64,000 nucleotides of DNA from an uncultured Verrucomicrobiae bacterium (GCA_963756875.1 CAVWPA010000003.1:800001-864000), one strand, 5' to 3'; positions 1,836 to 62,695 are shown, counted from the stretch's first letter. The notes: generated by a model from the sequence alone, not told the origin. Program-made: numbers and translations.

Positions 1836-1937
1836 TGTGGCGGTGGTCGATGACTGCCCGATGCCGCGATTTAATTTATGCGACGGTCATCCGCCTTCGC
1901 CAGAAAATTACGGCGCGACAAGTAGACCGCCGCTACA
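1836..1937. repeat. REP-like doublet of the 59218-59287 family, interrupted by a mini-element
   Basis: TGTGGCGGTGGTCGATGACTGCC...TGCGACGGTCAT[insert]AGACCGCCGCTACA aligns with TGTAGCGGCGGTCTATGACCGTCGC...TGCGACGGTCGCAGATCGCGGCTACA. Confidence 0.8.
1891..1922 (+). mobile_element. Mini insertion element, copy 1
   Basis: CCGCCTTCGCCAGAAAATTACGGCGCGACAAG with T on both sides; removing it restores the REP hairpin. Confidence 0.7.
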
Positions 1938-1953
1938 ATAGGACGTGAACTCG

Positions 1954-3273
1954 ATGGAAAAGATGGCCCGCGAGATTGTCGCGCGTCTGCGCGAGCGCGG
2001 TCATGTTGCCTATTTCGCCGGCGGCTGCGTACGCGACATGGTGCGCGGTGAGAGTCCCAAGGACTTCGATATCGTGACCGATGCGCAACCCGAAGCGGTG
2101 CAGAGACTTTTTCCGCGAACTTACGCCGTCGGCGCGCATTTCGGAGTCATCGTGGTCGTCGAAGGAGAATTCCAATTTGAAGTCGCAACTTTTCGCTCCG
2201 ATGGCGCTTATCTCGATCACCGGCATCCCAGCGAAGTTCACTTTTCTTCACCGGAAGAGGATGCCAGACGGCGGGATTTCACGATCAATGGCATGTTTTT
2301 CGACCCGGTCGCGAACCAGGTCATCGATTTCGTCGGCGGCCGGGCGGACATCGAAGCGAAATTGGTCCGCGCGATCGGCGACCCGGGCCAACGATTTACA
2401 GAGGACCGTTTGCGCATGTTGCGGGCGGTGCGCTTCGCCACTGTGCTCGATTACCAAATCGACCGGAAGACCTGGGAGGCCCTCGTTGCGAACGCGCCTT
2501 CAATCAACGAAATCAGTGCCGAGCGAATTCGCGAGGAGTTGTTACGGATTTTTTTATCACCCAATCGTGTGCGCGGCTGGGATCTACTCGATCAAAGCGG
2601 ATTGATGCGCGTTATTTTACCGGAACTGGATGAGATGAAAGGCTGCCAGCAGCCGGAGCAATTTCATCCGGAAGGCGATGTTTTCACGCACACGCGGCTG
2701 ATGTTGCACCTGCTACCGAAAAAAGTCTCGGTGCCGCTTGTTCTCTCGGTCCTGTTTCATGATATCGGCAAGCCGGTGACGGCAACGGTCGATGAAACGG
2801 GCCGGATTCGTTTTAACGACCACGACCGGATCGGCGCGGCGATGACCGAAGGAATCATGGAGCGATTGCGTTTCTCGCGCGCAGAGATTGACGCGACGGT
2901 GGAGATGGTGCGGCAGCATATGGTTTTCAAGGACGTGCCGAAGATGCGAGTGGCGAAATTGAAACGTTTCATGGCGCGGCCCACTTTCGAAGAGGAACTG
3001 GAGCTGCACCGGGTGGATTGCGAGAGCAGTCATCGCATGCTGGACAATTACGAATTTCTGCTGCGTAAACGGGAAGAATTCGCGAACGAGCCGATCATTC
3101 CGCTACCGCTGGTGCGCGGCGACGATCTGATCGTGCTCGGGCTAAGACCGGGACCAAAGTTTGGCGAGATTCTCGAAGCTGTGGAAACGCGCCAGTTGGA
3201 AGGCTGGCTGCACAGCCGCGCGGAAGCGATTGAGTGGATAAAGAAAGAATATTCGTTAGGCAAGAGCGACTAA
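1954..3273 (+). CDS. cca: CCA tRNA nucleotidyltransferase / poly(A) polymerase family with HD domain (alternative GTG start 1945)
   Basis: GGCVRD, DFDIVT, RRDFTING, EDRLRMLRAVRF, HPEGDVFTHT, HDIGK. Confidence 0.9.
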   Translation: MEKMAREIVARLRERGHVAYFAGGCVRDMVRGESPKDFDIVTDAQPEAVQRLFPRTYAVGAHFGVIVVVEGEFQFEVATFRSDGAYLDHRHPSEVHFSSPEEDARRRDFTINGMFFDPVANQVIDFVGGRADIEAKLVRAIGDPGQRFTEDRLRMLRAVRFATVLDYQIDRKTWEALVANAPSINEISAERIREELLRIFLSPNRVRGWDLLDQSGLMRVILPELDEMKGCQQPEQFHPEGDVFTHTRLMLHLLPKKVSVPLVLSVLFHDIGKPVTATVDETGRIRFNDHDRIGAAMTEGIMERLRFSRAEIDATVEMVRQHMVFKDVPKMRVAKLKRFMARPTFEEELELHRVDCESSHRMLDNYEFLLRKREEFANEPIIPLPLVRGDDLIVLGLRPGPKFGEILEAVETRQLEGWLHSRAEAIEWIKKEYSLGKSD

Positions 3274-3321
3274 AAAAACGCCCGATATTGCCCCCCAATA
3301 GCAGAAGTCGGCTCCACTTTG

Positions 3322-3356
3322 ACATCAAACATCAAACACCGAACATCCAGCATCGC
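3322..3356. repeat. Degenerate 7-mer tandem repeat
   Basis: ACATCAA ACATCAA ACACCGA ACATCCA GCATCGC directly before the glgA ATG. Confidence 0.6.
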
Positions 3357-4805
3357 ATGAGAATCCTGATGATCAGTCCGGAGGGGCCGCCGATGGAGCG
3401 CGCGGGGGCGCTAGTGGACGTGATGAATGCGTTGCCGCACGAGCTGCGCGAGCGAGGACATGAGGTGGCGGTGGCGATGCCGTTTTATCGCGAGATTCGG
3501 GAGAATCCCGCATTCAAGGAAGAAGATACCGGGGTGACAGTCGATGTTCGAGTGGGCGACAAAACTTATATCGCCGAATATTTACAAGGGCGGAGCGCCA
3601 GCGGAGTGCAGTTGTTCTTTGTTCGATGCGATGATTTTTTCGATCGAGGAGGAATCTACGGCGAGCATGGCGTTCCTTACGAAGATAACGCCGAGCGCTT
3701 TATCTTTTTCAGCAAGGCGTCGGTGGAACTGGCGCGGCGCCTGACACCGCCCCCGCAGGTGCTCCATATCCATGATTGGCCGGCGGCGCTGGTGCCGGTT
3801 TATGTGCAGGCGCACCATTTGCCGTTCTCGACGGCGTTGACGATCCATCATCTGGCGGAGCAGGGGAGTTTCTGGGGGCTCGACTTTCGTCTGACGAACC
3901 TGCACGAGCGGTTTTTCACGCTCCGTGGTGTCGAGTTTTTCGGGAAATTGAATTTTCTCAAGGCCGGGATTTTGTTCTCCGACAAAATCACGACTGTAAG
4001 CGAGCGGTACAAGCGCGAGATACAGACGCCCGAATACGGTTGCGGGCTGGATGGTGTTTTTCGCGAGAACGCATTCAAGCTCACCGCAATTTTGCATGGC
4101 GCCGATTACGCGCGCTGGAATCCTGAGACCGACGCACTGCTGCCGGCGCGTTACAATCCAAACTCGATGTGGGGGAAGCAGATTTGCCGCGACACATTGC
4201 TGGCCGATCTCGGACTCGCGCGCGCGCCGACGGGACCTGTTTTTGGAATGGTCACGCGCGTGGTCGAGGAAAAAGGCTTCCAAATTCTCATGCCTGCGCT
4301 CGATCGCCTTCTTTCCGACGATGTGCGTCTGATCGTTCTCGGGGAGGGCGATCCGGGTTACGAAACTGCGCTCGCCGTCGCTTCGCGAAAGTTTCCCGGC
4401 AAGTTTGCTTACCGAAGAGATTACCACGAGAGGTTGGCCCATTTGATTGAAGCGGGAACGGACATTGCGTTGATTCCGTCACGCTTCGAACCTGCGGGGC
4501 TAAGTGCGATGTACAATTTGCGCTACGGTGCGCTCCCAGTCGCAAGCGCCACGGGTGGAATTCAGGAAATTATCGAGGATTACGATCCGGCTGTTGACAG
4601 CGGATATGGGTTCCTCTGTTACGAATATTCGACCGAGGCTTTCTGGGACGCGATTAAGCGCGCGCGCGAGATTTTTCGCAATCGCGAGATCTGGACGGGG
4701 CTGATGGAGCGCGCGATGGCCCGGAATTTTTCCTGGGCTGAATCGGCGCAGCGGTACGAGGAACTTTATCGCGAGCTCGTTCCCGCCGATCAGGCCGCGG
4801 CCTGA
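3357..4805 (+). CDS. glgA: Glycogen/starch synthase family (GT5) with variant N-terminal motif
   Basis: YEDNAERFIFF, HIHDW, NFLKAG, PSRFEPAGL, RYGALPV, GGIQE, FSW; KTGGL replaced by RAGAL. Confidence 0.85.
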   Translation: MRILMISPEGPPMERAGALVDVMNALPHELRERGHEVAVAMPFYREIRENPAFKEEDTGVTVDVRVGDKTYIAEYLQGRSASGVQLFFVRCDDFFDRGGIYGEHGVPYEDNAERFIFFSKASVELARRLTPPPQVLHIHDWPAALVPVYVQAHHLPFSTALTIHHLAEQGSFWGLDFRLTNLHERFFTLRGVEFFGKLNFLKAGILFSDKITTVSERYKREIQTPEYGCGLDGVFRENAFKLTAILHGADYARWNPETDALLPARYNPNSMWGKQICRDTLLADLGLARAPTGPVFGMVTRVVEEKGFQILMPALDRLLSDDVRLIVLGEGDPGYETALAVASRKFPGKFAYRRDYHERLAHLIEAGTDIALIPSRFEPAGLSAMYNLRYGALPVASATGGIQEIIEDYDPAVDSGYGFLCYEYSTEAFWDAIKRAREIFRNREIWTGLMERAMARNFSWAESAQRYEELYRELVPADQAAA

Positions 4806-4817
4806 TTGGCGGCTTTT

Positions 4818-4848
4818 CCTCTCCTCAAGGAGAGGATTTAGGTAAGGG
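4818..4848. repeat. CCTCTCC...GGAGAGG hairpin (palindromic repeat or terminator) after glgA
   Basis: CCTCTCCT-CAA-GGAGAGG followed by ATTTAGGTAAGGG. Confidence 0.5.
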
Positions 4849-5003
4849 CAAACACATCGTCTTCTCGTCGAACTCAGGCCATTTGAGCCCTAAGAAACGA
4901 AACGATTGCGATGCAGCGCGGCACTCCAGAGACCGGCGAATCCGCAAGTTCTTGCAATCGCGGAGGCTTTGATATCTCCTCGGCCCTTCCCGGTTCTGAC
5001 GTC

Positions 5004-43084: not shown

Positions 43085-43231
43085 TCGGAAGTCAGCGATC
43101 AGCGGTCAGGTCAAAAAGGTTCCAAATGCCTCAGTTCAGGGGCTCCCGCCTTTGTCCGGCAACGGCCGGACTGCGGCGCGGCGGGCGACCCAGGTAACCA
43201 GAGGTCAGAGGACAGAAGCCAGAGATCAGCT
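43085..43231. repeat. Two 7-mer tandem tracts (GTCAGAG-like)
   Basis: GTCGGAA GTCAGCG ATCAGCG GTCAGGT and ACCAGAG GTCAGAG GACAGAA GCCAGAG ATCAGCT. Confidence 0.7.
43146..43185 (+). mobile_element. Mini insertion element, copy 2 (long variant)
   Basis: CCGCCTTT-GTCCGGC-AACG-GCCGGAC-TGCGGCGCGGCGGG with C on both sides. Confidence 0.6.
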
Positions 43232-46196: not shown

Positions 46197-46253
46197 GGAG
46201 GGCGTCCGCGCTGCATGCCACGCCATAGCGGCGCGGCGGCGGGTCGGCGCCCT
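46197..46253. repeat. GGAG REP-like hairpin interrupted by mini-element copy 3 (46214-46242, minus strand)
   Basis: Minus-strand insert CCGCCGCCGCGCCGCTATGGCGTGGCATG with C on both sides; removal leaves GGAGGGCGTCCGCGCTGTCGGCGCCCT. Confidence 0.65.
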
Positions 46254-48076: not shown

Positions 48077-48084
48077 AGCGCAGC

Positions 48085-49958: not shown

Positions 49959-50040
49959 TCTCGCAGCGGCATTATCCCGGCAGTCTGTCCCGCGATGCGG
50001 TTTACTTTCGGCTGCTGTCGCCTAAGATCGGCCGCAAGGC

Positions 50041-50760: not shown

Positions 50761-50776
50761 GAATTGATTCTAAATA

Positions 50777-51625
50777 ATGCAGCGGGTGCTCATTGCGGGC
50801 TGTGGCTATCTAGGACGAGCGGCAGCCGACTTGTTTCACAGTGCCGCCTGGCACGTCGAAGGGTGGACGAGGTCAACCCGTGCCGCCGGAGAACTCACCG
50901 GAAAGCCTTACCCGGTTGGGGCGGTCGATATCTCAGATCGCCGTCAAGTGGACGCCTGCAAGAGCGAATTCGACGCGGTGGTCCATTGTGCGAGCACGCG
51001 CGGAGGTGACGCGAACCTTTATCGGCAGGTTTATTTAGAGGGAGCGCGTAATCTCCTGCGCCGCTTCGCCAAATCGACAATCTTGTTTGTGAGCAGCACG
51101 AGCGTTTACGCCCAAACCGGCGGCGAATGGGTGACCGAAGAAAGCGCCGCACAACCGGAACATGAAACGGGAAAAATCCTGCTCGAGACGGAGCGGTGTG
51201 TTCTCGATCGCAACGGCGTTGTCACGCGACTCGCTGGGATTTACGGCCCCTGTCGCTCGTATCTGCTCAAGAGATTCCTGGGCGGCGAAGCGGTTATCGA
51301 TCCAAAGAACGACCGGTTTGTGAATCAGGTGCACCGGGACGATGCCGCGGCGGCGTTGTTTGTCTTATTGGATCGTTCCGCGCCGGGAGGTGAAATTTTT
51401 GACGTGGTTGACGATCAGCCGATGCTGCAGAGCGAATGCTACCGTTGGCTGGCGACGAAGTTAAATCGAGAACTCCCACCTGTCGGAACAACGGAATCAA
51501 AGCGGAAGCGCGGCGCGAGCAACAAACGAGTGAGCAACGCCAAGCTGCGCGCTTTGGGTTGGAATCCGCATTATCCGACATTCGCCGACGCGATGGAGAA
51601 GAGCGTTCTGGAGAGTTTTTCCTGA
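50777..51625 (+). CDS. NAD-dependent epimerase/dehydratase (YeeZ-like extended SDR)
   Basis: IAGCGYLG, SSTSVY, RLAGIYGP, KRVSNAKL. Confidence 0.88.
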   Translation: MQRVLIAGCGYLGRAAADLFHSAAWHVEGWTRSTRAAGELTGKPYPVGAVDISDRRQVDACKSEFDAVVHCASTRGGDANLYRQVYLEGARNLLRRFAKSTILFVSSTSVYAQTGGEWVTEESAAQPEHETGKILLETERCVLDRNGVVTRLAGIYGPCRSYLLKRFLGGEAVIDPKNDRFVNQVHRDDAAAALFVLLDRSAPGGEIFDVVDDQPMLQSECYRWLATKLNRELPPVGTTESKRKRGASNKRVSNAKLRALGWNPHYPTFADAMEKSVLESFS

Positions 51626-51652
51626 CGGTTGAAGCCCTAGGTTTCCGCCTTG

Positions 51653-51717
51653 TGTAGCCACGGCGCTCTGTCGCCGTGATTCCCCGCGTCGGCGCCCCGG
51701 CAGAGCGGGGCGGCTAC
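51653..51717. repeat. GTAG REP-like doublet (10791 family)
   Basis: TGTAGCCACGGCGCTCTGTCGCCGTG...CGCCCCGGCAGAGCGGGGCGGCTAC. Confidence 0.85.
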
Positions 51718-51777
51718 GTCCGAAAGGCGCGATTTTTTTCTCAAAATCAGGGGTATAAAAGCTGCTTTTTTTCAGGT

Positions 51778-52044
51778 GTGCGCATAATCAAGCTCACTGG
51801 CCGCGAAGCGAACGTCGTGCGGGCGATTGGTTTTGCCGAGTCTATGCTTGGGACCGAAATCCAGGATTTCACGCGCATGGAATCTGACGATGTGACCGAC
51901 ACACTAAACAGCCTGATGGCTGCGGGATTCGTCGAAAGTATTCCTTACTTCGAGCAAGTACAGCTCGCGGAAATGCCGGTGACCGCATTTGAATTGAATC
52001 CAGCGTACGCGCACGATTTGAAACGCGCGTTGTTCCGCGGTTAG
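51778..52044 (+). CDS. Small hypothetical protein, possible winged helix
   Basis: GTG start; LTGREANVVRAIG...TLNSLMAAGFVE. Confidence 0.65.
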   Translation: MRIIKLTGREANVVRAIGFAESMLGTEIQDFTRMESDDVTDTLNSLMAAGFVESIPYFEQVQLAEMPVTAFELNPAYAHDLKRALFRG

Positions 52045-53069
52045 CTTACGCCGGTCGCGGCCGTGGCCCGCGAATCGGAGGCGGCCGAGTGCTGCGCCCG
52101 CCGCTCGCCAAAGAGTTGGCGGATCACTTCTTCCACCGGCACTTCCTGGACGTTGATGTCGCTGACATGGCAGGCTTCCAACAGTTGCCGGCAGGTTTCG
52201 GTGACTTTTGCCCTCGGGACTTTCAGCTGCACCGAGACCGGTGTTTGCTCGATAATTTCGCCGAATGCCGACAAATCCCGGTCTGCTCTCTTCTCGAAAG
52301 TCAGGCTGATAATTTTGTGACCGGAAAAACGGTCGATGATCTGGGAGAGAGGACCGTCGAAAAAGATTTTGCCGTGATCGATCACGAGAACGCGATGACA
52401 AAGCTCCTCGATATCCTGCATGTAGTGACTGGTGAGCAGCGTGACAATGCGATGTTCTTCGTTGTAAATGCGAAGAAATTCGCGCACGCGTTTTTGACTG
52501 ACGACATCGAGGCCAATAGTTGGTTCGTCGAGAAACAGGACTCGCGGTTCGTGGATGAGGGCCGAGATCAACTCCATTTTCATCCGCTCGCCCAACGACA
52601 GTTCGCGCACCATCACGTTCATCTTGTCCCGGACATCGAGAATATCGGAGAGGCCGTCGACGACTTTTTTGAAACGCTGGCGGTCGATCCCGTAAATGGC
52701 GCGATTGAGTTCCAGCGATTCCTGAGCCGGCAGGTCCCACCAAAGCGCGTTTTTCTGGCCCATGAGCAAACTGAACTGGCGCTTCATTTCATTGCGCCTC
52801 TCCCATGGAACGAAGCCCAGGACGCGGGCCTCCCCGGAACTGGGGTTGAGAAGACCGGAGAGCATCTTGAGCACGGTTGTTTTTCCGGCGCCGTTCGGAC
52901 CGAGGAATCCGACGAACTCGCCGTCGTCGATCTGAAAGGAGACGCCGTCGGCGGCGCGTGTTTCCTCGTATCGCCGCCTGACGAGTCCCTTGATGGAGCC
53001 CCGCAATCCGCCCTCCTTTCGATAGGTGCGGTAAATCTTTGTCAGGTCGCGAGCTTCAATCGCGCTCAT
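52041..53069 (-). CDS. ABC-2 transporter ATP-binding protein
   Basis: GPNGAGKTT, LSLGERMK, LFLDEPT, TSH. Confidence 0.94.
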   Translation of the reverse strand: MSAIEARDLTKIYRTYRKEGGLRGSIKGLVRRRYEETRAADGVSFQIDDGEFVGFLGPNGAGKTTVLKMLSGLLNPSSGEARVLGFVPWERRNEMKRQFSLLMGQKNALWWDLPAQESLELNRAIYGIDRQRFKKVVDGLSDILDVRDKMNVMVRELSLGERMKMELISALIHEPRVLFLDEPTIGLDVVSQKRVREFLRIYNEEHRIVTLLTSHYMQDIEELCHRVLVIDHGKIFFDGPLSQIIDRFSGHKIISLTFEKRADRDLSAFGEIIEQTPVSVQLKVPRAKVTETCRQLLEACHVSDINVQEVPVEEVIRQLFGERRAQHSAASDSRATAATGVS

Positions 53070-53116
53070 ACGGCTTGGTCGGATCGACCATCAATCCAGG
53101 CCGATCTCTTCGGCCA

Positions 53117-55042
53117 TTAGGCCACGCTCGATCGGACCGGCGCTTTTTTTTGGAGAAGCGCAAGCACTTTCTCCACGAGTGCATCTGCGGTGATGCCATG
53201 TTTTTTACGCAGGATCGGGACAGCGCCGTGCTCGATGAATTCATCCGGCCAGCCGATGCGCACCACCGGTGTATTAATCATTTGCGAATGCAGATGCTCC
53301 ATTACCGCGCAGCCGAAACCGTTAAATAGAACGTGGTCTTCAATCGTACAGACCACTTCAACGCTGCGCGCGAAGAATTCGAGCGTGCCGGTATCCAACG
53401 GCTTAATCCAGCGCGGATTGATCAACGCTACGGAGATGCCTTTTTCTTCGAGTTTTCTCGCCGCTTCTTCGGCGACTTCGAACATGTTTCCCAGGCCGAA
53501 GATCGCCACGTCGCGACCGTGCTGGACCACTTCGGCCTTTCCGATTTCGAGAAGTTTTGGCTCTGCCTTCGGCTTGGCGCCGGTCCCCGCACCTCGCGGA
53601 TAGCGAATAGCGATTGGCCCGGCGCTGTAATTGGCCATGGTCCAGAGCATGTCGGCGAATTCGTCCTCGTTCTTCGGCTGCATGTGCACCCAGTTGGGGA
53701 TATGCCGCAGATAACCGATGTCGAACAGTCCGTGGTGCGTCGGCCCATCGTCGCCGCTTAAGCCTGCGCGGTCCATGCAGAGCGAGACATTGAGTTTCTG
53801 GATGGCCATGTCGTGGATGGCCATGTCGTAAGCGCGCTGAAAGAACGTAGAATAAATTGCGAGAAACGGCTTCAACCCCTGAGTGGCGAGCCCGCATGCA
53901 AAAAGCGCGGCGTGTTCTTCCGCAATTCCAACGTCGTAATATCGATCGGGATGGGCCTTGGCAAAATGGGACAGCCCGGTGCCGCTTGGCATTGCCGCCG
54001 TGATCGCGACGATCTTTCGATTCGTGTCCGCGAATTTGGCGAGCGTCTTGCCGATGGTCTCCGAATAGGTCGGAGTCGGCGCGGGTGCGGTCTCGCCGGT
54101 CTCCAGCTTGTATTTGCCGAGTCCGTGAAATTTATCGGGCTGTTTGATGGCAGGTTCGTAGCCCTTGCCTTTTTTCGTGAGAATGTGCAGCAGCACCGGC
54201 TCTTCCTGCGTCTTCAAAAATTCGAACGTTCGAATAAGCAGAGGGATGTCGTGGCCGTCGATCGGGCCATAGTAGCGGAGCCCGAGTTCTTCGAAAATGA
54301 CGCTCGGGACGAGCAAACCCTTTACGCTCTCCTCGACTTTGTGGGCAAAGTGAACGCCCGTTTTTCCGAGGATCGCCTGGATGAAGCCGCGCGCCTTTTC
54401 ATGCAGATGCGCGTAAGTGGGGCTTGCCACAATAGCGTTCAAATAGTTAGCGATGGCGCCGACGTTCTTCGCGATCGACCATTCATTGTCGTTCAGCACG
54501 ACGATGAAGCGTTTCGTGTGCGCCTTCACATTGTTCAACGCTTCGTAACTGATTCCGCAGGTAAGCGCGGCGTCGCCCGCTACGACGATGACGTTCTCAT
54601 CGCTCCCGCGCAGGTCGCGCCCGACTGCCATGCCGAGGCCGGCGGAAAGCGCCGTGCCGGCATGGCCGGCGCCATAACAATCATGCTCGCTTTCGGTTCG
54701 CAAAAGGAATCCGTTGAGACCCCCGTACTGCCGCATTGTCGAGAAGCGATTGAGACGCCCGGTAAACAACTTGTGTACGTAACCCTGGTGGCTCACGTCC
54801 ATCACAAGCCGGTCGTGCGGCGTGTTGAAAACGCGATGCAGCGCGATGGTCAGCTCGACCACGCCAAGGTTCGGACCCAAGTGTCCGCCCGTTTGTGAAA
54901 GCACCCTGATCAGTTCGTCGCGCACCTCTTGCGCCAGTTGCGGCAGGTCTTGTTCGCGCAGGGCTTTTATGTCCGCGGGCGAACGAATCCCGTCGAGCAA
55001 ACGCTTTGGCGCGGTTGTCTCCTCAGAAGAGTCTGACTTCAT
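53117..55042 (-). CDS. dxs: 1-deoxy-D-xylulose-5-phosphate synthase
   Basis: GGHLGPNLGVVELT, GDAA...LNDN TPP motif, GIAEEHA, DGPTHHG. Confidence 0.97.
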   Translation of the reverse strand: MKSDSSEETTAPKRLLDGIRSPADIKALREQDLPQLAQEVRDELIRVLSQTGGHLGPNLGVVELTIALHRVFNTPHDRLVMDVSHQGYVHKLFTGRLNRFSTMRQYGGLNGFLLRTESEHDCYGAGHAGTALSAGLGMAVGRDLRGSDENVIVVAGDAALTCGISYEALNNVKAHTKRFIVVLNDNEWSIAKNVGAIANYLNAIVASPTYAHLHEKARGFIQAILGKTGVHFAHKVEESVKGLLVPSVIFEELGLRYYGPIDGHDIPLLIRTFEFLKTQEEPVLLHILTKKGKGYEPAIKQPDKFHGLGKYKLETGETAPAPTPTYSETIGKTLAKFADTNRKIVAITAAMPSGTGLSHFAKAHPDRYYDVGIAEEHAALFACGLATQGLKPFLAIYSTFFQRAYDMAIHDMAIQKLNVSLCMDRAGLSGDDGPTHHGLFDIGYLRHIPNWVHMQPKNEDEFADMLWTMANYSAGPIAIRYPRGAGTGAKPKAEPKLLEIGKAEVVQHGRDVAIFGLGNMFEVAEEAARKLEEKGISVALINPRWIKPLDTGTLEFFARSVEVVCTIEDHVLFNGFGCAVMEHLHSQMINTPVVRIGWPDEFIEHGAVPILRKKHGITADALVEKVLALLQKKAPVRSSVA

Positions 55043-55370
55043 CGTTTTGCTTTTCTCCTTTTTCGACTGCTCCCCCGCTGGGCGGATTGGTTGTGGCAAA
55101 TTGGTTTTCAATGCCCGCATCCGGCCCCGGCTCAAAATTTTTCACCACTGGTTTACCGGTGTTGTTGCGGGCGATTATCTCGATCTTTTGTTCGGCGCTG
55201 GCAAGCCGCTCCTGGCAGATTTTTACGAGATTCATTCCCTCCTCGTAGCGAACGATTAGATCCTCGAGCGGAAGTTTACCCGATTCCATTTGCTCGACGA
55301 TTGATTCGAGCCGGTCCATCGCCTTCTCGAAGTTCAATTCGGCCCCCTGGCTTTTCGGTTTGCTGCTCAT
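55023..55370 (-). CDS. xseB: Exodeoxyribonuclease VII small subunit
   Basis: FEKAMDRLESIVEQMESGKLPLEDLIVRYEEG; adjacent to dxs. Confidence 0.93.
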   Translation of the reverse strand: MSSKPKSQGAELNFEKAMDRLESIVEQMESGKLPLEDLIVRYEEGMNLVKICQERLASAEQKIEIIARNNTGKPVVKNFEPGPDAGIENQFATTNPPSGGAVEKGEKQNDEVRLF

Positions 55371-55512
55371 GCCGGAAACTCAAACTTAAGCACAGCGCCA
55401 CCCAAGATAAAGGCGGGAGTTCCGGGTGTTGAAGCACGGCGCTGCGAATCGCACCTCCTTGCGGCATGGCCGTCCTCGTTCTTGGGACGGTAATAGCTGC
55501 AAAAGGCGGGCG

Positions 55513-55528
55513 TGGCACATCCGATGCT
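55513..55528 (+). promoter_or_regulatory. Candidate sigma-54 promoter
   Basis: TGGCACATCCGATGCT closely matches TGGCAC-N5-TTGCW, 22 bp upstream of ATG 55551. Confidence 0.55.
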
Positions 55529-55550
55529 CCCGTTTGGAACGAAACAACCT

Positions 55551-55931
55551 ATGGTAAAGTTCCCAAAGAAAATCCTACTGATCGATCATGAGCCGGGCGT
55601 TACACGCCTCATCAAGCGGGCGCTGGAAAAGGCCGGCAAATATATGGTCAGGGAGGAACGCGACGAACGGACGGCGCTGCATGCCGCCCGCTGGTTCCAA
55701 CCCGATCTCATTCTGGTCGACGCCGCAGGCCGCGACCGCCGAAATATTGAGCGACAGATTCAAACCGATGCCGCGCTCAGGGACACACCGGTGCTTTCAT
55801 TGAGCAGCCTCAAGCCCGAGAACCAAATGGTGTCCGGTGGTATCTTGAGCGGCTACAGTTTTTTCGCCGCTCCGGTCCGCATCGAAGAAGTTCTTCGCAG
55901 CGTCGAGGAGCTTCTCTTCGGTAAAGACTAA
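55551..55931 (+). CDS. Stand-alone atypical receiver-domain protein
   Basis: KILLIDHEP, PDLILVD, TPVLSLSS; conserved Lys-Pro replaced by AP. Confidence 0.82.
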   Translation: MVKFPKKILLIDHEPGVTRLIKRALEKAGKYMVREERDERTALHAARWFQPDLILVDAAGRDRRNIERQIQTDAALRDTPVLSLSSLKPENQMVSGGILSGYSFFAAPVRIEEVLRSVEELLFGKD

Positions 55932-55954
55932 GCGCTAATTGGCCGGGTCGCGCC

Positions 55955-56332
55955 CTAACCGATCTGCTGCTTGTACGCTGCTGCGTCTTTCAATTGTTTC
56001 AGATCGTCCGGATTATCGATTTTTAGGACAAAGATCCAGCCCTGGCCGTAAGGCTCGCGATTGATCAGTCCCGGATCGGCGTCGAGCGCTTGATTCGCCT
56101 CAACCACCGTTCCTTTTACCGGCGCGTAGATGTCGCTGGCGGCCTTGACCGACTCGACTACGGCAATCGCTTCTTTCGCGTTCGCCTGTCGGTCCTTTTT
56201 AGGGAGCTCGACGTAAACAACGTCGGTTAATTCAGCCTGCGCATGATCGGTGATGCCGACGCGGATCTTGTCGCCTTCGCGCTTAATCCATTCATGGCTT
56301 TCGGTGTAGCGTAAATCTTCAGGAATGTTCAT
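55955..56332 (-). CDS. gcvH: Glycine cleavage system H protein
   Basis: YTESHEW, VGITDHAQ, VESVKAAS lipoyl-Lys. Confidence 0.97.
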   Translation of the reverse strand: MNIPEDLRYTESHEWIKREGDKIRVGITDHAQAELTDVVYVELPKKDRQANAKEAIAVVESVKAASDIYAPVKGTVVEANQALDADPGLINREPYGQGWIFVLKIDNPDDLKQLKDAAAYKQQIG

Positions 56333-57408
56333 GACTGTTTGTAGAGCGGTTTTTTCTCGATCGTAGCGGGAAACTTTTGTCCCCGAATCTCAATCTCGAT
56401 CTGGTTGCCGATTTTCGCATGCGGCGCATCGATGTAAGCCATTCCAACGCCCCAATTCAAGCTCGGCGACAGCGTCCCGCTGGTGACTTCGCCGATGCGC
56501 TGGCCGTTGGCGAACACGGCGTAATGCGGTCTGGGCGGCGCTCCCTTTTCCTTCATTCGAAACGGCACGAGTTTTTGGCGCGGACCGTTCTCTTTCGTTT
56601 TAAGCAAGTCATCGCGGCCGATAAAGCCGGGCTTGGTAAGATCGACAAAAGAACCAAGACCGGCCTCGATTGGATTGCGCTCGGGCGAGAGATCGGATCC
56701 ATTGAGTGGGTAACACATTTCCAATCGCAACGTGTCGCGCGCGCCGAGTCCACACGGTTTGATACCCAGTGGTTTTCCTCTTTCCAAAACGGTGTTCCAA
56801 AACTTCACCGCATCCTGTGCGCGAAAGAAAACTTCGACGCCGTCCTCCCCCGTGTACCCGGTGCGCGCCATTGAAACGGGCATTCCGTCCAACTCAACGT
56901 CTACGATTTGATTTCGCGGCGGGAGATTAACAAAAAGTTCGGTAACGCGCGGGCCCTGGATGGCGACACCGCCGAAATTCGCGCTGCGGTTCGTCAGATT
57001 TACGTTGTTACCGCGATGTCGATCTAACCAATCGAAGTCTTCTTTCGTGCGCGACGCGTTTACGACGAGCAGAAATCTTTCCTCACCGATCCGATAGGCG
57101 ATGAGATCGTCAATGATGCCGCCGCGCTCATTGAGAAGAAAAGTGTAATGGCCGTGCCCGACCTCCAGTTTGTCGATGTTGTTTGTCAGCATCGTGTTCA
57201 GCCATCCGCGGGCGCCGTTCCCGTCGACGATCAATTGTCCCATGTGGGAAATGTCGAAGATGCCGAGAGCGTTTCGCACCGCCTGGTGTTCGTCCCCGAT
57301 ACCGGTGTATTGCACAGGCATGAGCCAGCCCGCGAATGGAACCATTCGTGCGCCCCGCTTCACATGCTCATCGTAAAGCGGCGTCTTTTTCTCCGCCGGC
57401 TCGGTCAC
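56329..57408 (-). CDS. gcvT: Aminomethyltransferase (glycine cleavage T protein)
   Basis: TPLY, FDISHMG, RTGYTGEDG, GLGARDTLRLE. Confidence 0.97.
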   Translation of the reverse strand: MTEPAEKKTPLYDEHVKRGARMVPFAGWLMPVQYTGIGDEHQAVRNALGIFDISHMGQLIVDGNGARGWLNTMLTNNIDKLEVGHGHYTFLLNERGGIIDDLIAYRIGEERFLLVVNASRTKEDFDWLDRHRGNNVNLTNRSANFGGVAIQGPRVTELFVNLPPRNQIVDVELDGMPVSMARTGYTGEDGVEVFFRAQDAVKFWNTVLERGKPLGIKPCGLGARDTLRLEMCYPLNGSDLSPERNPIEAGLGSFVDLTKPGFIGRDDLLKTKENGPRQKLVPFRMKEKGAPPRPHYAVFANGQRIGEVTSGTLSPSLNWGVGMAYIDAPHAKIGNQIEIEIRGQKFPATIEKKPLYKQS

Positions 57409-57537
57409 GCGCCAAGCCTAAACGCCAATCGAATGAACGTAAAGATCGCGCACCGGGTGGGTCACGTGCACGCGCTCGGAGAATTGCGGTTCACATCCGC
57501 TTGCAGACGAATCGAGTGCCTTTACCGTGCCGCAACA

Positions 57538-58320
57538 ATGACTGTTCTCGACAAACTCGAGCGCCGTTTGGGTTTTCTTGGGATTCCAGGATTACCGCGC
57601 ATTCTGGTTGGCTTTGCCGCGCTGGTGTTTTTTTTAGCCCGTCTGTTCCCAGGCTTTACTTCGATGCTCGATCTCGATCCCGCGCGGATCTTGCATGGCG
57701 AGGTCTGGCGCCTCGTCACATACATTTTCATTCCTCAGACCCTCAGCCTGTGGTGGATTCTCTTCGCGCTCTGGTTTCTTTGGTGGATTGGCGAAGGGCT
57801 CGAACGTGTCTGGGGCCCGTTTCGGTTTACGCTTTATCTGGTGGTCGGGATGATCGGCACCACGGCTGCGGCGTTCTTCTTTGGCAGCAATTTTTCCAAC
57901 ACCATGCTGATCGCTTCGCTGTTTTATGCGTTTGCCTATTTTTATCCGGACGAAGTCATCTATCTGCTGTTCATTTTGCCGGTTAAAATCAAGTGGCTGG
58001 CCTGGATTCTGGCTGCATTGCTTTTGCTCGGATTTCTCGTAAACACGAACTCGTATCGCATCGCGTTGATTGCCGCGTTCAGTAATTACCTGCTCTTTTT
58101 TGGCCCGGAATACGTCTATGCCGCCCGGCACCGTCACGAAGTCTCGTCACGCCGGAGACGTTTTGAGTCGCAATCGCGGAGTGAAACGGAGTCGCTTCAC
58201 AAGTGCGCGGTCTGCGGTGCCACTGAGCTGAGCGATCCGAATCTCGAGTTCCGCGTCGCGCGCGATGGCGAGGAATATTGCATCGCCCATCTGCCGAAGG
58301 CGCAAGCGCCGGCGCAGTGA
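57538..58320 (+). CDS. Rhomboid/Derlin-like membrane protein with C-terminal Zn-finger-like tail
   Basis: GEVWRLVTYIFIP, GEGLE..WG, PVKIKWL, HKCAVCG...YC..H. Confidence 0.75.
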   Translation: MTVLDKLERRLGFLGIPGLPRILVGFAALVFFLARLFPGFTSMLDLDPARILHGEVWRLVTYIFIPQTLSLWWILFALWFLWWIGEGLERVWGPFRFTLYLVVGMIGTTAAAFFFGSNFSNTMLIASLFYAFAYFYPDEVIYLLFILPVKIKWLAWILAALLLLGFLVNTNSYRIALIAAFSNYLLFFGPEYVYAARHRHEVSSRRRRFESQSRSETESLHKCAVCGATELSDPNLEFRVARDGEEYCIAHLPKAQAPAQ

Positions 58321-58384
58321 AGCGGATGGCCCCCCGCGATCCACCTTTGCTTGACCAGCGTCCAGCGAAGCGGAAACTAGCGCA

Positions 58385-59206
58385 ATGACCGACAAGAACA
58401 CGACGCTTGTTCCGGAAGAAGGCTGGCATTGTTTGCATCTTTTCTACCGCATCGAGCATGGGCAATGGCAATTGTTCAGCCGCGAAGAGCAGAATGCGGC
58501 AAAAACGAACCTGGCAAAACTCGTCCAGGAAATTCGCGCTCTGGACTCCACGCAGCTGCTCACGCTCAGCGTGGTGACGCCGAAGGCCGACCTCGGTTTC
58601 ATGCTGATCACTCCCGATTTGCAAAGCGCCAACAGGATTGAGAAGCAATTATTGACTTCGCTGGGACCGGACGTGCTGACACCGGTTTACAGCTATCTCT
58701 CGCTCACCGAAGAAAGCGAGTACATCACGACGGAGGCCGAATACGCGGACACCCTCGCGAAGGAACAAAATATCGCGCCCGATTCGCCCAAGTTCGCCGA
58801 GGCAATGAACGCGTTTCGCGAGCGAATCAAACATTACAGGCAGGAGCGCGTTTATCCGACACTGCCGGACTGGCCGGTCGTCTGTTTCTATAACATGAGC
58901 AAGCGCCGCGGCGAGCAGCGGAATTGGTACGCGCTTCCGTATGATGAGCGACGCCGCCTGATGAAAGGGCACGCCTCCGTCGGCCGCCAGTTCGCCGGGA
59001 AGGTGAAACAGCTTATCACCGGGTCGACCGGACTCGACGATGCCGAGTGGGGCGTCACGCTTTTCTCGCGCGACACTTTTCAGATCAAGGCGATCGTTTA
59101 CCAAATGCGCTTCGATCCGGTGAGCGCTGAGTATGCCGACTTTGGTGAATTCTTCATCGGCATTCAACTGCCGCTGGACGAATTGTTCCGGCGATTGCAA
59201 CTGTAA
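58385..59206 (+). CDS. chdC: Coproheme decarboxylase / chlorite dismutase family (HemQ/ChdC)
   Basis: EGWHCLH, KADL, SLTEESEY, CFYNMSKRR, NWY.LP, GSTGLDDAEWGVTLF, MRFD. Confidence 0.88.
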   Translation: MTDKNTTLVPEEGWHCLHLFYRIEHGQWQLFSREEQNAAKTNLAKLVQEIRALDSTQLLTLSVVTPKADLGFMLITPDLQSANRIEKQLLTSLGPDVLTPVYSYLSLTEESEYITTEAEYADTLAKEQNIAPDSPKFAEAMNAFRERIKHYRQERVYPTLPDWPVVCFYNMSKRRGEQRNWYALPYDERRRLMKGHASVGRQFAGKVKQLITGSTGLDDAEWGVTLFSRDTFQIKAIVYQMRFDPVSAEYADFGEFFIGIQLPLDELFRRLQL

Positions 59207-59217
59207 GCGCTTTTTTC

Positions 59218-59287
59218 TGTAGCGGCGGTCTATGACCGTCGCATGATTTTTCCGCAACAAGTGCGACGGTCGCAGATCGCGGCTACA
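59218..59287. repeat. GTAG REP-like doublet
   Basis: TGTA-GCGGCGGTC-TAT-GACCGTCGC...GCGACGGTC-GCA-GATCGCGGC-TACA. Confidence 0.85.
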
Positions 59288-59298
59288 GAACAAAAACG

Positions 59299-59383
59299 GG
59301 ATGGGTGACAGAGCGGTCTATTGTGCACGCCTGGAAAGCGTGTGTGCCGAAAGGCACCGGGGGTTCGAATCCCCCCCCATCCG
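59299..59383 (+). tRNA. tRNA-Ser(GGA), CCA not encoded
   Basis: Acceptor GGATGGG/CCCATCC, anticodon arm CACGC-CTGGAAA-GCGTG, long variable arm, GGTTCGAATCC, discriminator G followed by CCG. Confidence 0.96.
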
Positions 59384-59548
59384 CCGGATCCCAAATTTGT
59401 TTCTCTCGTGCGCGTGATCTGGCCCATTTCGTGGCAGTACTGGAGATTCGAACGCCGTTCGACTGGCGGGGCGCGTTACGCGCGAGGGTCAAAAGCGAAG
59501 CTCTAACTCCAGAGCCAAAGCGCAGCTTTGGATAATCCCCGGGGACGC

Positions 59549-59630
59549 TGTAGACACCGACCTCTCGGGAGACGCCGCGCGCGATCTTAATTACGATCAG
59601 TACCGCGTTTCGCAGAGCCAAACGTCTACA
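59549..59630. repeat. Degenerate GTAG REP-like doublet
   Basis: TGTAGAC...GTCTACA termini with decayed internal stems. Confidence 0.55.
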
Positions 59631-59669
59631 CCAGCATGGCGCCGTGCTCCTGCGCGGCCCCGCTTCGAT

Positions 59670-60359
59670 TTACCTCGCCAGATCTGGTCGTCGCTCCAAA
59701 ATTTGAAGCGCCTGGCGTAATTTAACAATGCTGCCTTCGGGCAACACGCCGCGAAAATTCACGGTGGGGTAAACGATGCAATCGCGGCCCAAAACCGAGC
59801 CCGGATTAATCACCGCGTTGCAACCGATTTCAGTCCGATCACCAACGATCGCGCCGAACTTCGTGAGGCCGGTTGCGATCGGGCCGTCGGCGGCCGTGAC
59901 CGAAATTTCGCGATGATCAAGTTTCACATTCGACAGAATAACGCCCGCACCGAGATGAGAGTGGTGACCGAGGATCGAGTCGCCGACGTAGTTGAAATGA
60001 GGCACCTGCGCTTCGTCAAAAACGATGCAGTTTTTGAACTCGCACGAGTTTCCCATTACCACGCGGTTCCCAACGATGACATTTTCCCGCACATAGCAAC
60101 CGCTCCGGATGTGACAATTCTCGCCGATCCACGCGGGCCCTTTTAAAATCGCTCCCTGTTCGACAATGGTGCCGCGTCCGATAAAAACGCGGTCGCTAAT
60201 AAAAGGTTTACCCATCACCTCGCCGAGCAGCCCGGGTTTCAAACGAAATTGCAGGTAGCTGGCGATTTGTTTGAGCGCGTTCCAAACATATTTTTGGTTC
60301 TCGAACAATTTCGGATGGGCCGTGTGTTCGAGGTCGAGAAGATCGGCGGGCGCAAACAT
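59670..60359 (-). CDS. LbH GlmU C-terminal-like acetyltransferase
   Basis: Hexapeptide repeats, PHFNYVGDSILG, HLGAG, KFGAIVGD. Confidence 0.85.
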   Translation of the reverse strand: MFAPADLLDLEHTAHPKLFENQKYVWNALKQIASYLQFRLKPGLLGEVMGKPFISDRVFIGRGTIVEQGAILKGPAWIGENCHIRSGCYVRENVIVGNRVVMGNSCEFKNCIVFDEAQVPHFNYVGDSILGHHSHLGAGVILSNVKLDHREISVTAADGPIATGLTKFGAIVGDRTEIGCNAVINPGSVLGRDCIVYPTVNFRGVLPEGSIVKLRQALQILERRPDLAR

Positions 60360-60407
60360 TTTCAGCGCTCAAGATGACGAATCACTCCCCGGGTTGCGAG
60401 CGCAAAC

Positions 60408-60548
60408 TCCGGGGAGCACAGGCTGCCAGCCTGTGGTTGCCGGCGGCCCGGCAGGCAACGCCTTCGCTCACGCAATTCCGAAGCAACGCCGTTTCCCGGT
60501 CCCGGCAAGCTGCCGAGACCCACAGGCTGGCAGCCCGTGCTCCCCGGA
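60408..60548. repeat. GGAG REP-like / MITE inverted repeat
   Basis: 29 bp arms TCCGGGGAGCACAGGCTGCCAGCCTGTGG, 28/29 complementary, abutting the cysS stop. Confidence 0.85.
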
Positions 60549-61964
60549 TCACTCTGCGCCTCGCGGGGTGACTTTTTGTCCATCCTTTGTGTCGCGCACT
60601 TCCCATCCCAGCGCATTCAATCTCTTGCGCAATTCGTCGCTTTTCTTGAAATCCTTTGCAAGCCTGGCTTGCATACGTGCTTCTGCCAATGCGACGATTT
60701 CATCGGGAATCCTGCTCTTCGTAGTAGTGAGGTCTAGTACACGATCAATGCGTGCCCACCACTGCAGCCACCGATGAGCGGCGGAAGCGGTCAAGGTGCC
60801 TGCGTCAAGCGCCTGATTGCTCTCGCGAATTGCATCGTAGAGAACCGCGAGAGCTGCAGAAATATTTAAATCATCGTCGAGCGCTTCTTCGAATTTTCCC
60901 GTCGGCGGTTGGACCGCCGATGGTTCAGTTTTTGCACTTTCTTGCTGTGACGTTGCTTCCAATCGCTCCAGCCAATCGTCGATCCGGCCCAACGATTCCC
61001 TGGCCTCTTTCATTCCGTCCCAGGTGAAATTGAGCTGTGTCCGGTAATGGACGCGCAGCAGCGCGTAACGCAGTTCGCGGCCGGTGTAGCCTTTTCCCAG
61101 AATATCCGGGACCGTATAAAAATTGCCCAGCGATTTGGACATCTTTTGACCATCGACCAAAAGGTGCGCGCAATGCAGCCAGTAGCGCACGAACTGTTTG
61201 CCGGTGCAGCTTTCGCTTTGCGCGATCTCCGCTTCGTGGTGCGGGAAAATGTTGTCCACGCCGCCGCAATGGATGTCGATTTGATCGCCGAGCAGCGCGG
61301 TCGCCATCGCGCTGCACTCGATGTGCCAGCCAGGACGACCGCGTCCCCATGGACTTTCCCATGCCACCTTGCCGTCTTCCTCGTCCCACGCCTTCCAGAG
61401 CGCAAAATCGCCGATATGCTCCTTGTCGTACTCGTCGTGCTTGACGCGCCCTGTCGATTGCAGCTGCGTGAGATCGAAGTGTGCGAGTTTTCCGTAGTCG
61501 GGAAATTTGTTGATTCGAAAATAGACTGACTTGTCGTCGGCTTGGTAAGCGAGTTCACGCGAGATCAGCTCGCCGATCATCAAGATCATTCTGTCGATGT
61601 AACGCTGGTCGGTCGCGGCGGGGAATTCATCCGCGCGTTCGATGCGCAAGGCTTTGAGGTCATCAAAGAACGCCTGTTTGAATTGCTCGGTGAATTTTGC
61701 GAGCGGAACGTCCGCCTCGCGTGCGCTGCGGATGGTCTTGTCGTCCACGTCGGTGATGTTCATGACGCGGTGCACTTTGTAGCCGCGCAGTTCCAGATGA
61801 CGCTGTAAAAGGTCTTCGAAGATGTAGGCGCGAAAATTTCCGATGTGGGCGCGGCTGTAAACGGTCGGGCCGCAAGTGTACATGTCGACCTCGCGGCCGG
61901 CGGGATCGCGAGGCCGAAACTCTTCGAGCTCGCGCGAGTAGGTGTTAAAAAATCGAAGAGCCAT
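60549..61964 (-). CDS. cysS: Cysteine--tRNA ligase
   Basis: YTCGPTVY, HIGN, GRPGWHIECS, FPHHEAE, KMSKS. Confidence 0.98.
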   Translation of the reverse strand: MALRFFNTYSRELEEFRPRDPAGREVDMYTCGPTVYSRAHIGNFRAYIFEDLLQRHLELRGYKVHRVMNITDVDDKTIRSAREADVPLAKFTEQFKQAFFDDLKALRIERADEFPAATDQRYIDRMILMIGELISRELAYQADDKSVYFRINKFPDYGKLAHFDLTQLQSTGRVKHDEYDKEHIGDFALWKAWDEEDGKVAWESPWGRGRPGWHIECSAMATALLGDQIDIHCGGVDNIFPHHEAEIAQSESCTGKQFVRYWLHCAHLLVDGQKMSKSLGNFYTVPDILGKGYTGRELRYALLRVHYRTQLNFTWDGMKEARESLGRIDDWLERLEATSQQESAKTEPSAVQPPTGKFEEALDDDLNISAALAVLYDAIRESNQALDAGTLTASAAHRWLQWWARIDRVLDLTTTKSRIPDEIVALAEARMQARLAKDFKKSDELRKRLNALGWEVRDTKDGQKVTPRGAE

Positions 61965-61968
61965 TCTT

Positions 61969-62057
61969 AGTGGAGTGTTGGAGTAGTTGGAGCAGTGGGG
62001 TAGTGAAAGGATCGAGCGGCGAAGCGCAATCATCACTCCATTGCTCCGCTATTCCAT
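61969..62057. repeat. Inverted 8-mer tandem array between ispF and cysS
   Basis: GGAGTGTT GGAGTAGTT GGAGCAGT GGGGTAGT versus CATCACTC CATTGCTC CGCTATTC. Confidence 0.7.
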
Positions 62058-62525
62058 TTCGACAGTCGCCACCGCCATCGCGGCGATCCCTTCATTCCGG
62101 CCGATCGCTCCGAGGCGCTCATTTGTTGTCGCCTTGATGCTGATGTTTGATTCAGAGATTCCGAGCGCGCCACCAATTGTCTTTTGCATGGCTGAAATGT
62201 GCGGCGCAATCTTTGGCGCTTCTGCAATGATTGTCGCATCAATATTGACCACGCTCGCCTTTTTCTCCGCGAGCAATTTCGTTACGCGCTTGAGAATTTC
62301 GACGCTGCTGATGCCGCGAATCGATTGATCGGTGTTTGGAAAGTGCTGGCCAATGTCGCCCGCGCCGATCGCTCCCAGAAGAGCGTCTGCGATTGCGTGC
62401 AACAGTACATCCGCATCCGAATGTCCCACCAGACCGCGCGAGTGTGGGATCGTTACCCCGCCGAGAATCAATTGTCGATTCTCGGCGAGCCGATGAACGT
62501 CGTAACCTATGCCGGTTCGAAACAT
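62049..62525 (-). CDS. ispF: 2-C-methyl-D-erythritol 2,4-cyclodiphosphate synthase
   Basis: GIGYDVH, GHSDADVLLHA, GDIGQHFP, KATTNE. Confidence 0.97.
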   Translation of the reverse strand: MFRTGIGYDVHRLAENRQLILGGVTIPHSRGLVGHSDADVLLHAIADALLGAIGAGDIGQHFPNTDQSIRGISSVEILKRVTKLLAEKKASVVNIDATIIAEAPKIAPHISAMQKTIGGALGISESNISIKATTNERLGAIGRNEGIAAMAVATVEME

Positions 62526-62531
62526 GGAAAA

Positions 62532-62695
62532 AATGACGAATGACCCGCCTTCGCCAGGCTTCGGCGCGGCAGGCGAATAACGAATGACGAATGAATGACA
62601 AAATCCGAATGCCAAAAAGGAATTCTCGATCGCTCGTTCGTCATTTGAGCATTCGTGCTTCCTTCGTGCTTCGTCATTCGAATTTCGTCATTCAT
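62532..62695. repeat. Inverted 7-mer tandem array (ACGAATG / CATTCGT) between suhB and ispF
   Basis: AATGACG AATGAC..GAATAAC GAATGAC GAATGA versus CATTCGT GCTTCGT CATTCG..CGTCATTCAT. Confidence 0.8.
62545..62573 (+). mobile_element. Mini insertion element, copy 4
   Basis: CCGCCTTCGCCAGGCTTCGGCGCGGCAGG with C on both sides; removal restores the 7-mer register. Confidence 0.72.

Follow-up and report, generated by a model that had tools for sequence, protein, structure and literature searches.

What are the short sequences of about 30 nt that interrupt other repeats in this DNA, and what put them there? The stretch analysed (the window: 64,000 nt of an uncultured Verrucomicrobiae bacterium, GCA_963756875.1, CAVWPA010000003.1:800001-864000) holds four of them, which an earlier note had described as a non-autonomous mobile unit with a 1-nt target duplication, moved in trans by an enzyme possibly of the HUH/Y1 type. 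The family typified by these four sequences is named E here. E seems to be a relative of the repetitive extragenic palindromic (REP) elements that has not been described before, of very small size and unusually wide distribution, and its single insertion events can be read in paralogous and orthologous sites.

Copies of E in the window and in its genome

The window belongs to the contig set of a genome of 2.69 Mb (G000; 3 contigs, 57% G+C, 87.6% complete), the source genome. Re-reading of the letters bore out the four related sequences of the earlier note, together with their like flanking bases (T/T, C/C, C/C on the minus strand, and C/C). With the first base of the element included where it is kept in the count (see below), the four copies are:

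1890..1922, plus strand: E copy of 33 nt including its first base, T1890; A-variant with an extended, A-rich inner loop (38.7 bits)
43145..43185, plus strand: E copy whose inner hairpin is long (GTCCGGC/GCCGGAC) and whose tail, CGGG, is divergent (16.9 bits, E-value 0.14)
46214..46243, minus strand: divergent E copy, with the outer stem and the tail CATG kept and a different interior (12.8 bits, E-value 0.96)
62544..62573, plus strand: canonical E copy of 30 nt, G-variant (51 bits)

A loose pattern of the end motifs matched the window 6 times, compared with a mean of 1.08 in 100 shuffled sequences, none of which reached 6. Scanning the whole genome with at most one mismatch per end motif gave 69 copies, a few of which, of odd length or lying in coding DNA, may be chance matches. 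A covariance model, built from 75 copies of other genomes and two window copies and counted at an E-value of 0.1 or less, found 61 copies in the genome; it recovered each of the four window copies. Two of these score strongly (51 and 38.7 bits); the weak scorers, 43145-43185 (16.9 bits) and 46243-46214 (12.8 bits), are divergent members of the family. The scan of this genome and its relatives that the earlier note had suggested thus did yield further copies, 61 here and 10-61 in 13 of 40 related genomes (cited below by their G numbers).

Insertion borders and host repeats

Borders were located by a junction test, in which 14 nt of left flank and 14 nt of right flank were joined after dropping 0-3 extra bases per side, and searched against the genome. 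Junctions with exactly one base dropped gave 615 genome matches (left base) and 861 (right base), against 2-10 for each of the other offsets. An empty paralogue at the one-base offset was obtained for 37 of the 69 copies, which represent 43 host contexts; another 9 copies match at a different offset only. The copy at 46214, missed by the motif scan, gave 4 and 3 junction matches at the one-base offset and none otherwise, one of them being perfect (C1:496439-496463), and the search of the genome for an empty paralogue of the 43145 copy was negative. The earlier observation that removal of the element plus one base restores the host structure therefore holds, and E is supported as a discrete, very small, non-autonomous insertion unit.

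Copies lie inside at least three kinds of other repeats, in agreement with the nesting first described for the window. One of the host families also flanks genes encoding REP-associated tyrosine transposases (RAYTs). The hosts seen in the window are:

1880..1937, minus strand: REP1 hairpin, arms at 1880-1888 and 1925-1933, with a minus-strand GTAG tag at 1933-1936; E in the loop
46196..46252, plus strand: hairpin of the TGGAGGG...CCC type, a REP family adjoining RAYT genes on contigs C1 and C3; the 46214 copy in the loop
62526..62700, no strand assigned: heptamer palindrome (HP), short GACGAAT-type arrays facing their own reverse complement; E in the left arm

REP1 is a GTAG-tagged REP (GCGACGGTC-ATA-GACCGCCGC-TACAG), found genome-wide in about 50 empty copies (about 45-57; form GCGACGGTCATAGACCGCCGCTAC) and about 17 copies filled by E. 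The TGGAGGG.../...CCCTCCA hairpin family flanks two RAYT genes, and its empty forms stand beside the RAYT gene at C3:1385540-1385998. Other hosts are hairpins ending in GGCTACAG, short heptamer or decamer arrays, and unique DNA. HP is probably a separate family of mobile repeats; inverted arrays like it, made of CGCGAAT(N3), CGCCCAA and other units, were seen at other loci. A comparison of the flanks with random sites by means of perfect stems was too strict to serve (24/69 versus 19% at 5 bp or more).

The first base of E and its hairpin

The identical bases on the two sides of each copy had been taken for a 1-nt target duplication, a reading that did not survive comparison between copies. 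One genome of each species was searched with a strict pattern (at least 119 stretches, at least 121 matches). Among the matches listed, the base 5' of CCGCC and the purine R' in ...GGCGYG-R'-CARG form C-G in 74 cases, T-A in 30, T-G in 5 and C-A in 4, with another 5' base in 8. In an alignment of 77 rows (74 distinct), selected by a length of 30-34 nt and leaving out very short or long cores (mostly from proteobacterial records), the same two positions in the distinct rows are CG in 46, UA in 26 and UG in 2, and are never unpaired. Judged by this covariation, Y-CCGCC is predicted to pair with GGCG(Y)G-R' as a 6-bp stem with one bulged pyrimidine, the 5' base closing the stem; the statement that the element has no terminal inverted repeats was thus mistaken. 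The remaining five pairs of the outer stem are invariant in the alignment, being fixed by the search pattern, and independent support for them comes from the CAGCC variants of the source genome, three of four of which carry the compensating GGCTCGG.

At two loci with unlike flanks (T and C; C3:679266 and C1:535262), the empty orthologue keeps the C only, so that the inserted piece is Y+E and nothing was duplicated. Since the 5' base shows Watson-Crick covariation with an internal base, and since only C is left in the empty sites, this base is considered as part of the element. Identity of the flanking bases is nevertheless common, as the earlier note had expected: like flanks were counted in 56 of the 69 copies of the source genome (32 of the 43 contexts). 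Their cause is not duplication but the stem base of E together with a preferred pyrimidine of the target, under a site preference W^Y (W, A or T; Y, pyrimidine; ^, the insertion point). C follows E in 55 of 69 G-variant matches, the next base in the 31 A-variant matches being spread over C (10), T (10), G (6) and A (5); of all 100, 73 have A or T ahead of the element.

E is about 30 nt long (range 28-41). Inside the outer stem lies a conserved 3x3 internal loop (TTC/TWC), followed by a G-C pair and by an inner stem of 1-7 bp, which varies in length and sequence yet stays paired (CG 53, UA 7, GC 3, AU 2, other 8). The 3' tail CARG is unpaired, and the other strand accordingly reads 5'-CYTG and then a hairpin with the internal loop GWA/GAA; GWAG is present inside E before the inner stem, not at the foot. 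The full structure pairs in 95% of cells, compared with at most 45% when it is slid along the alignment, and its covariation score is 0.213 versus 0.111 in shuffles that ignore relatedness (0 of 500 reach 0.213). The minimum-free-energy fold, which pairs CCGCC with GGC-A-GG, was set aside, as covariation favours the register with the bulged pyrimidine.

A mini hairpin of 19 nt, CCGCC-T(G/C)A-GGCGGACAAG, was also noticed, which consists of the outer stem and tail of E without the interior (for instance L220, G015:C29:76413-76430). It has 6 copies in G015 (reversed control 0), 2 in G017, 2 in G013 and 1 in G008, and one of the G015 copies lies exactly at an E site of the source genome. The mini hairpin may be a deletion derivative of E or its precursor.

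Orthologous sites without E

Syntenic regions were compared with other genera of the same family, at 70-83% identity of coding DNA. Orthologous empty sites, which the earlier note had proposed to look for, were found at four loci in other genera. Upstream of the gene starting at window position 1955, REP1 stands at the same place in G010, G008 and G011, with the loops ATA, ATC and GGA and without E; the same REP1 in the source genome reads GGTCA-T[E]-TAGACC. At C3:1562968, a REP1-like hairpin is present in G008 and G015 but contains no E; G010 is without any repeat. At C3:679266, E lies inside a gene for a 359-aa Lactamase_B_2 protein (2.8e-29), the orthologues of which in G008 and G015 are exactly 30 nt shorter there; the insert is in frame and adds 10 codons, reading LSRRSRAKAE. 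The insert at C1:535262 is 31 nt long and its junction is exact (G010, gatcga|cagtcgttag; G000, gatcga|T+E|caaccgttag); G008 is also without E at this site, and G015 has there a 19-nt hairpin, TCCGCC-TGA-GGCGGA-CAAG.

The HP of the window (about 175 nt) parts two genes that are about 10-36 nt from each other in G008, G010, G011, G015, G009, G006 and G013. G012 has HP at the same site without E; an E-bearing HP of G008 lies at a different locus (L182), with 75% identity over 162 nt.

For the copies at 46214 and 43146, the relatives have other repeats or nothing alignable, and the comparison is uninformative for the presence of E; for the loci L205 and L206, syntenic anchors were searched and none was found. 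G006:C4:72408, which has similar flanks, was rejected as an orthologue of C1:535262: BLAST of 4 kb maps it to C3:1156931-1159430, which is without E in the source genome and whose spacer does not align with the G006 region. Reads and contigs of four public runs, compared with window positions 43001-63000, gave only relatives at about 88% and fragments, high depth over E coming from other copies or organisms, and no joint skipping E was among those listed.

Two features of the spacers compared were recorded beside these sites. The intergenic positions of single REP1 hairpins are shared between genera (G008, G010, G011, G015; loci at window 1880-1937 and G000:C3:1562950-1563015) amid barely alignable spacer, so single REP loci are kept over long times. 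Window positions 42400-43440 form about 950 nt between a conserved stretch (42114-42399) and the next gene, without counterpart in 11 relatives, whose matching spacer is about 100-250 nt; the 43145 copy and CAGAGGT-like short repeat runs lie inside it.

Distribution among relatives and across phyla

The covariance model was run on the 40 relatives with 150 candidates scored per genome. Thirteen of them are E-rich, with 10-61 hits: G012 (61), G021 (40), G008 (36), G016 (28), G010 (24), G017 (24), G009 (18), G015 (18), G014 (17), G022 (14), G006 (11), G019 (10) and G030 (10). The other 27 are E-poor, with 5 hits in G011 and 0-3 in the remaining 26. These tallies include three genomes flagged as unpublished (G002, G007 and G014, the last being one of the E-rich), on which no sequence-level claim rests. 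Of the 24 genomes of the family, 12 match the strict pattern; of the 16 from other families of the order, one does. The reversed-pattern control gave 0 in 41 genomes.

This patchy spread extends over several phyla. Of 150 genomes sampled evenly over the phylum, 40 gave a model hit at an E-value of 0.01 or less. The titles of records matching the strict pattern (80 of 119 titles) name Verrucomicrobiota (Chthoniobacterales, Limisphaerales, Opitutales), Acidobacteriota, Planctomycetota, Kiritimatiellae, Lentisphaerae, Methylomirabilota, Desulfobacterota and others. Chance alone is estimated to give such a pattern some tens of hits in 596 Gb, and contamination of bins is possible; isolated matches in Proteobacteria or similar groups are therefore not to be counted.

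The hits in G159 (20) and G064 (12) were rejected as free copies of E. They are a degenerate E-like module, CCGTC...GCCGTGACAAG, within a repeat of about 130 nt that has many copies in these two genomes, from another family of the phylum (L231-L234, L236, L237). G159 is without a Y1 gene, which says little because its hits are of this kind.

What moves E

That E is a mobile insertion unit is held with high confidence. The unit proposed by the earlier note stands as an insertion unit with empty sites at four loci, stripped of its duplication. The account preferred here, to which we give an even chance, is that E is non-autonomous mobile DNA, a REP-like hairpin that depends on movement in trans, for which one of eight RAYT-type Y1 enzymes may be responsible; that a RAYT/Y1 enzyme is the mover, taken by itself, is put slightly below that. 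Under this account, a Y1 HUH-type enzyme acting in trans would cut out or copy E as a single strand, which would be joined into single-stranded DNA at a W^Y site (mainly A before the insertion point and C after it) and leave no target duplication. Since entry would be into single-stranded DNA, E would often land in short tandem arrays and in loops exposed by other hairpin repeats, and an E inside a carrier repeat such as REP1 or HP would multiply together with its carrier.

What Y1 enzymes use is a hairpin with a tetranucleotide on the 5' side of its foot (Quentin 2018, PMC6006769). By analogy, CYTG followed by a hairpin on the other strand of E corresponds to the layout recognised by the Y1 HUH enzymes of the IS200/IS605-RAYT superfamily. 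The source genome has eight RAYT-like genes, three of which were scanned and score 70-96 bits to NF047646 (NCBIfam REP_Tyr_transpos). Movement by an HUH/Y1 enzyme, as the earlier note had suggested, is to this extent plausible, and the link of these genes to E is weak.

The points that weigh against a RAYT as the mover are of several kinds. None of the eight RAYT genes is flanked by E, the nearest copy being 1.9 kb off, and the covariance model places E beside RAYT at 1 of 35 RAYT loci (L146) of the source genome and its relatives. The RAYT genes are flanked by different repeats of their own, with GTAG or TGGA tags, without E. G006, which is 99% complete, has 11 canonical copies of E and no RAYT match. 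Among the 13 E-rich relatives, 8 have close homologues of the RAYT at C3:11963 and 6 of the metH-type RAYT; among the 27 E-poor ones the numbers are 5 and 8, the metH-type showing no trend. No RAYT clade tracks E cleanly, and co-occurrence is loose. What counts in favour of a Y1 enzyme is that, in the phylum sample, such genes are present in 37 of the 40 E-positive and in 65 of the 110 E-negative genomes; but these genomes are kin, and such co-occurrence counts overstate association. The tag CYTG is not the GT[AG]G or CGTC of the described REP superfamilies. The sequence of E is constant across phyla whereas REPs are held to be species-specific, which fits poorly with REP-RAYT pairing. A core that stays intact amid diverging intergenic DNA could mean a host function or homogenisation between copies. 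The strand of E is the G-rich strand in 47 of 69 copies, which is on the favourable side, but this bias is absent on contig C1 (10 versus 11).

The rarity of RAYT genes flanked by E (none here, 1 of 35 loci overall), the 11 copies of G006, the loose co-occurrence with RAYT clades and the constancy across phyla also speak for the best surviving rival, which we regard as possible though clearly less probable than the RAYT account: E would be mobile without Y1/RAYT, through an unrecognised enzyme or none, for example by template switching at the replication fork, hairpin-primed copying or short-patch conversion of empty carriers. Filled (about 17) and empty (about 50) REP1 copies coexist, and E-bearing REP1 is found in other genera too, which makes conversion from carrier to carrier possible. 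However, at least 43 host contexts, a unique coding site among them, with borders exact to the base would be hard to obtain by recombination between arms of 9-11 nt; the anatomy of tag plus hairpin fits HUH substrates; and TnpB, IS110 transposase and reverse transcriptase were searched in the 87.6%-complete assembly and not found. A search for Y2 enzymes gave nothing usable, its control also being without signal anywhere.

We consider it rather unlikely, though worth stating, that E is a parasite of parasites without an enzyme lineage of its own, a single-hairpin substrate exploiting something conserved and thus having the same sequence across phyla. What is conserved could be a broad range of Y1 enzymes, addressed via the inner GWAG-plus-stem module clamped by the constant outer stem. 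Alternatively, E could exploit the machinery of replication, and its copies in genomes that lack a Y1 gene would then be accounted for. Such a parasite would be built in layers by serial loop insertions, from the mini hairpin CCGCC-TSA-GGCGGACAAG to E, and from E to E in REP1 or HP.

A more doubtful possibility is that E is mainly a cis element useful to the host, such as a protein-binding DNA hairpin or an RNA stem-loop (stabiliser of mRNA 3' ends, terminator or processing site), the core of which is kept by selection, spread being secondary. Stem, internal loop and tail are indeed constant while the inner loop varies and the intergenic surroundings diverge, and the genomic context, read from a crude map of open reading frames (ORFs) of the source genome, points the same way in part. 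By this map, 45 of the 69 copies are intergenic, the other 24 lying in called ORFs, mostly short ones or ORF ends. Seventeen of the 45 are between convergent genes, an enrichment given that such spacers hold 18% of intergenic bases; 21 are between co-directional genes (15 with the genes, 6 against) and 7 between divergent genes. As RNA, the strand beginning with 5' CYTG folds more stably than the other (-14.1 versus -10.9 kcal/mol). On the other hand, one copy lies in frame within a hydrolase gene, copies occupy the loops of other selfish repeats, the distribution is all-or-none among genera of one family, the hairpin is followed by no T run, and Rfam gave no match. Exceptions to the closing pair, U-G and C-A, are moreover equally frequent on the two strands (5 and 4), so that neither strand is marked as RNA.

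That E is a footprint, the joined ends left after excision of a larger transposon, would agree with conserved ends around a variable middle and is very improbable, as the middle is a paired stem with compensatory changes and not junk, the empty sites are clean, and no pair of orphan left and right ends 60-6000 nt apart, as a parent element would show, was found in the source genome except one at 5.1 kb, the orphan halves being diverged copies or hits in coding sequence.

Comparison with known systems

No named family was found for E, in line with the earlier note. Rfam searches returned only tRNA in the window at gathering thresholds and, for twelve E loci at an E-value of 1 or less, only chance mir-61 hits away from E; the literature search found no description of E, the REP families of Opitutus and Rhodopirellula being compared by text and not by consensus sequences, and the left-end motif as a text string brought up only primer lists and similar matter. 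A term search of RepRanger 2025 (PMC12306157) finds no Verrucomicrobia, Planctomycetes, 'nested' or E motif.

The nearest relatives are REPs and REPINs (inverted REP doublets). E is likewise a short GC-rich imperfect palindrome (28-41 nt, REPs being 20-65 nt) with a tetranucleotide at the foot and tens of copies, mostly intergenic, enriched after genes and occasionally in frame, in a genome that has RAYT genes. It differs in its foot tetranucleotide (CYTG, not GT[AG]G or CGTC), in flanking no RAYT gene here (0/8; 1/35 loci with the relatives), and in occurring mostly as singlets, with a few close inverted or tandem pairs in the hit lists of relatives. Its sequence is common to several phyla, while REPs are described as not conserved between species, and its single insertion events can be read base by base (for REPs: PMC6006769). 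E thus works like a REP and is not a member of the GTAG or CGTC families, its tag being another and its copies flanking no RAYT gene of the genome. A CnGA foot is described for the repeats that belong to a class-3 Y1 group from Planctomycetes and Acidobacteria (Quentin 2018, PMC6006769).

According to Di Nocera et al. 2013 (PMC3733652), short- and long-loop forms coexist in REP families, with self-complementary sequence in the long loops; small palindromes such as CCGSSCC...GGSSCGG enclose some of the REPs; and REPs of Opitutus terrae are found in frame in genes. The modular 'complex loops' of these REPs are treated there as loop variants of each family. Unlike them, E is a discrete module with borders of its own, present in carriers of several unrelated kinds as well as in unique DNA, and found in other phyla too.

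The ends of IS200/IS605 insertion sequences (IS) and their miniature derivatives, the palindrome-associated transposable elements (PATEs), share with E a hairpin with a guide tetranucleotide, the lack of target duplication and insertion by a short preferred sequence, and a replication strand bias is expected for them. They have two different end hairpins and exceed 100 nt, whereas E is a single 30-nt hairpin, and TnpB was not found in the source genome. PATEs insert 3' of a fixed tetra- or pentanucleotide, while E has a weak W^Y preference and no fixed tetranucleotide target. Miniature inverted-repeat transposable elements have the terminal inverted repeats of an IS, 70-300 bp and a target-site duplication; E has 30 nt, no duplication (at two loci) and no parent IS.

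IS1397, ISKpn1 and ISPpu9 use REP hairpins as landing sites as E does, but they are gene-bearing elements of other families, and no IS110-type transposase was found in the source genome. Rickettsia palindromic elements (RPEs) are longer than E. They are also restricted to a lineage, and E adds 10 codons. Like E, RPEs and the REPs of Opitutus terrae are palindromic repeats standing in frame in functional-looking genes (as cited in PMC3733652).

The movement of REP-like hairpins has so far mostly been inferred from population patterns. With E, comparison with paralogues and with orthologous loci of other genera resolves individual insertion events to single bases, and these events display the absence of target duplication, the W^Y preference and a liking for the loops of other hairpins. 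E is odd for its class in that one 30-nt sequence is common to several phyla without an attached RAYT gene, and for this reason the question of what moves REP-like hairpins, and whether each family has its own enzyme, becomes directly testable. In practice, E and its carriers cause spurious small ORFs, 10-codon gene inserts and assembly breaks in metagenome bins of the Verrucomicrobiota and Acidobacteriota types, and a model for E would clean up annotation.

RAYT loci of the source genome

Two RAYT genes, at G000:C3:10463-13909 (L138) and C2:135400-138672 (L002), lie within long tandem arrays of GTAG-tagged REP doublets (CTGTAGAGGCAGGCG-TGT-CGCCTGC...) and are classical REPtron-like loci. A RAYT (Y1_Tnp) domain was also detected in frame, at amino acids 406-501, in a methionine synthase gene of 1538 aa (L201, G000:C2:22800-28300, ORF 384-5000 on the minus strand), where it lies between the homocysteine-methyltransferase (17-350) and pterin-binding (605-843) domains. 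Homologues of this methionine-synthase-type RAYT in the relatives are also within open frames, of 836-1514 aa.

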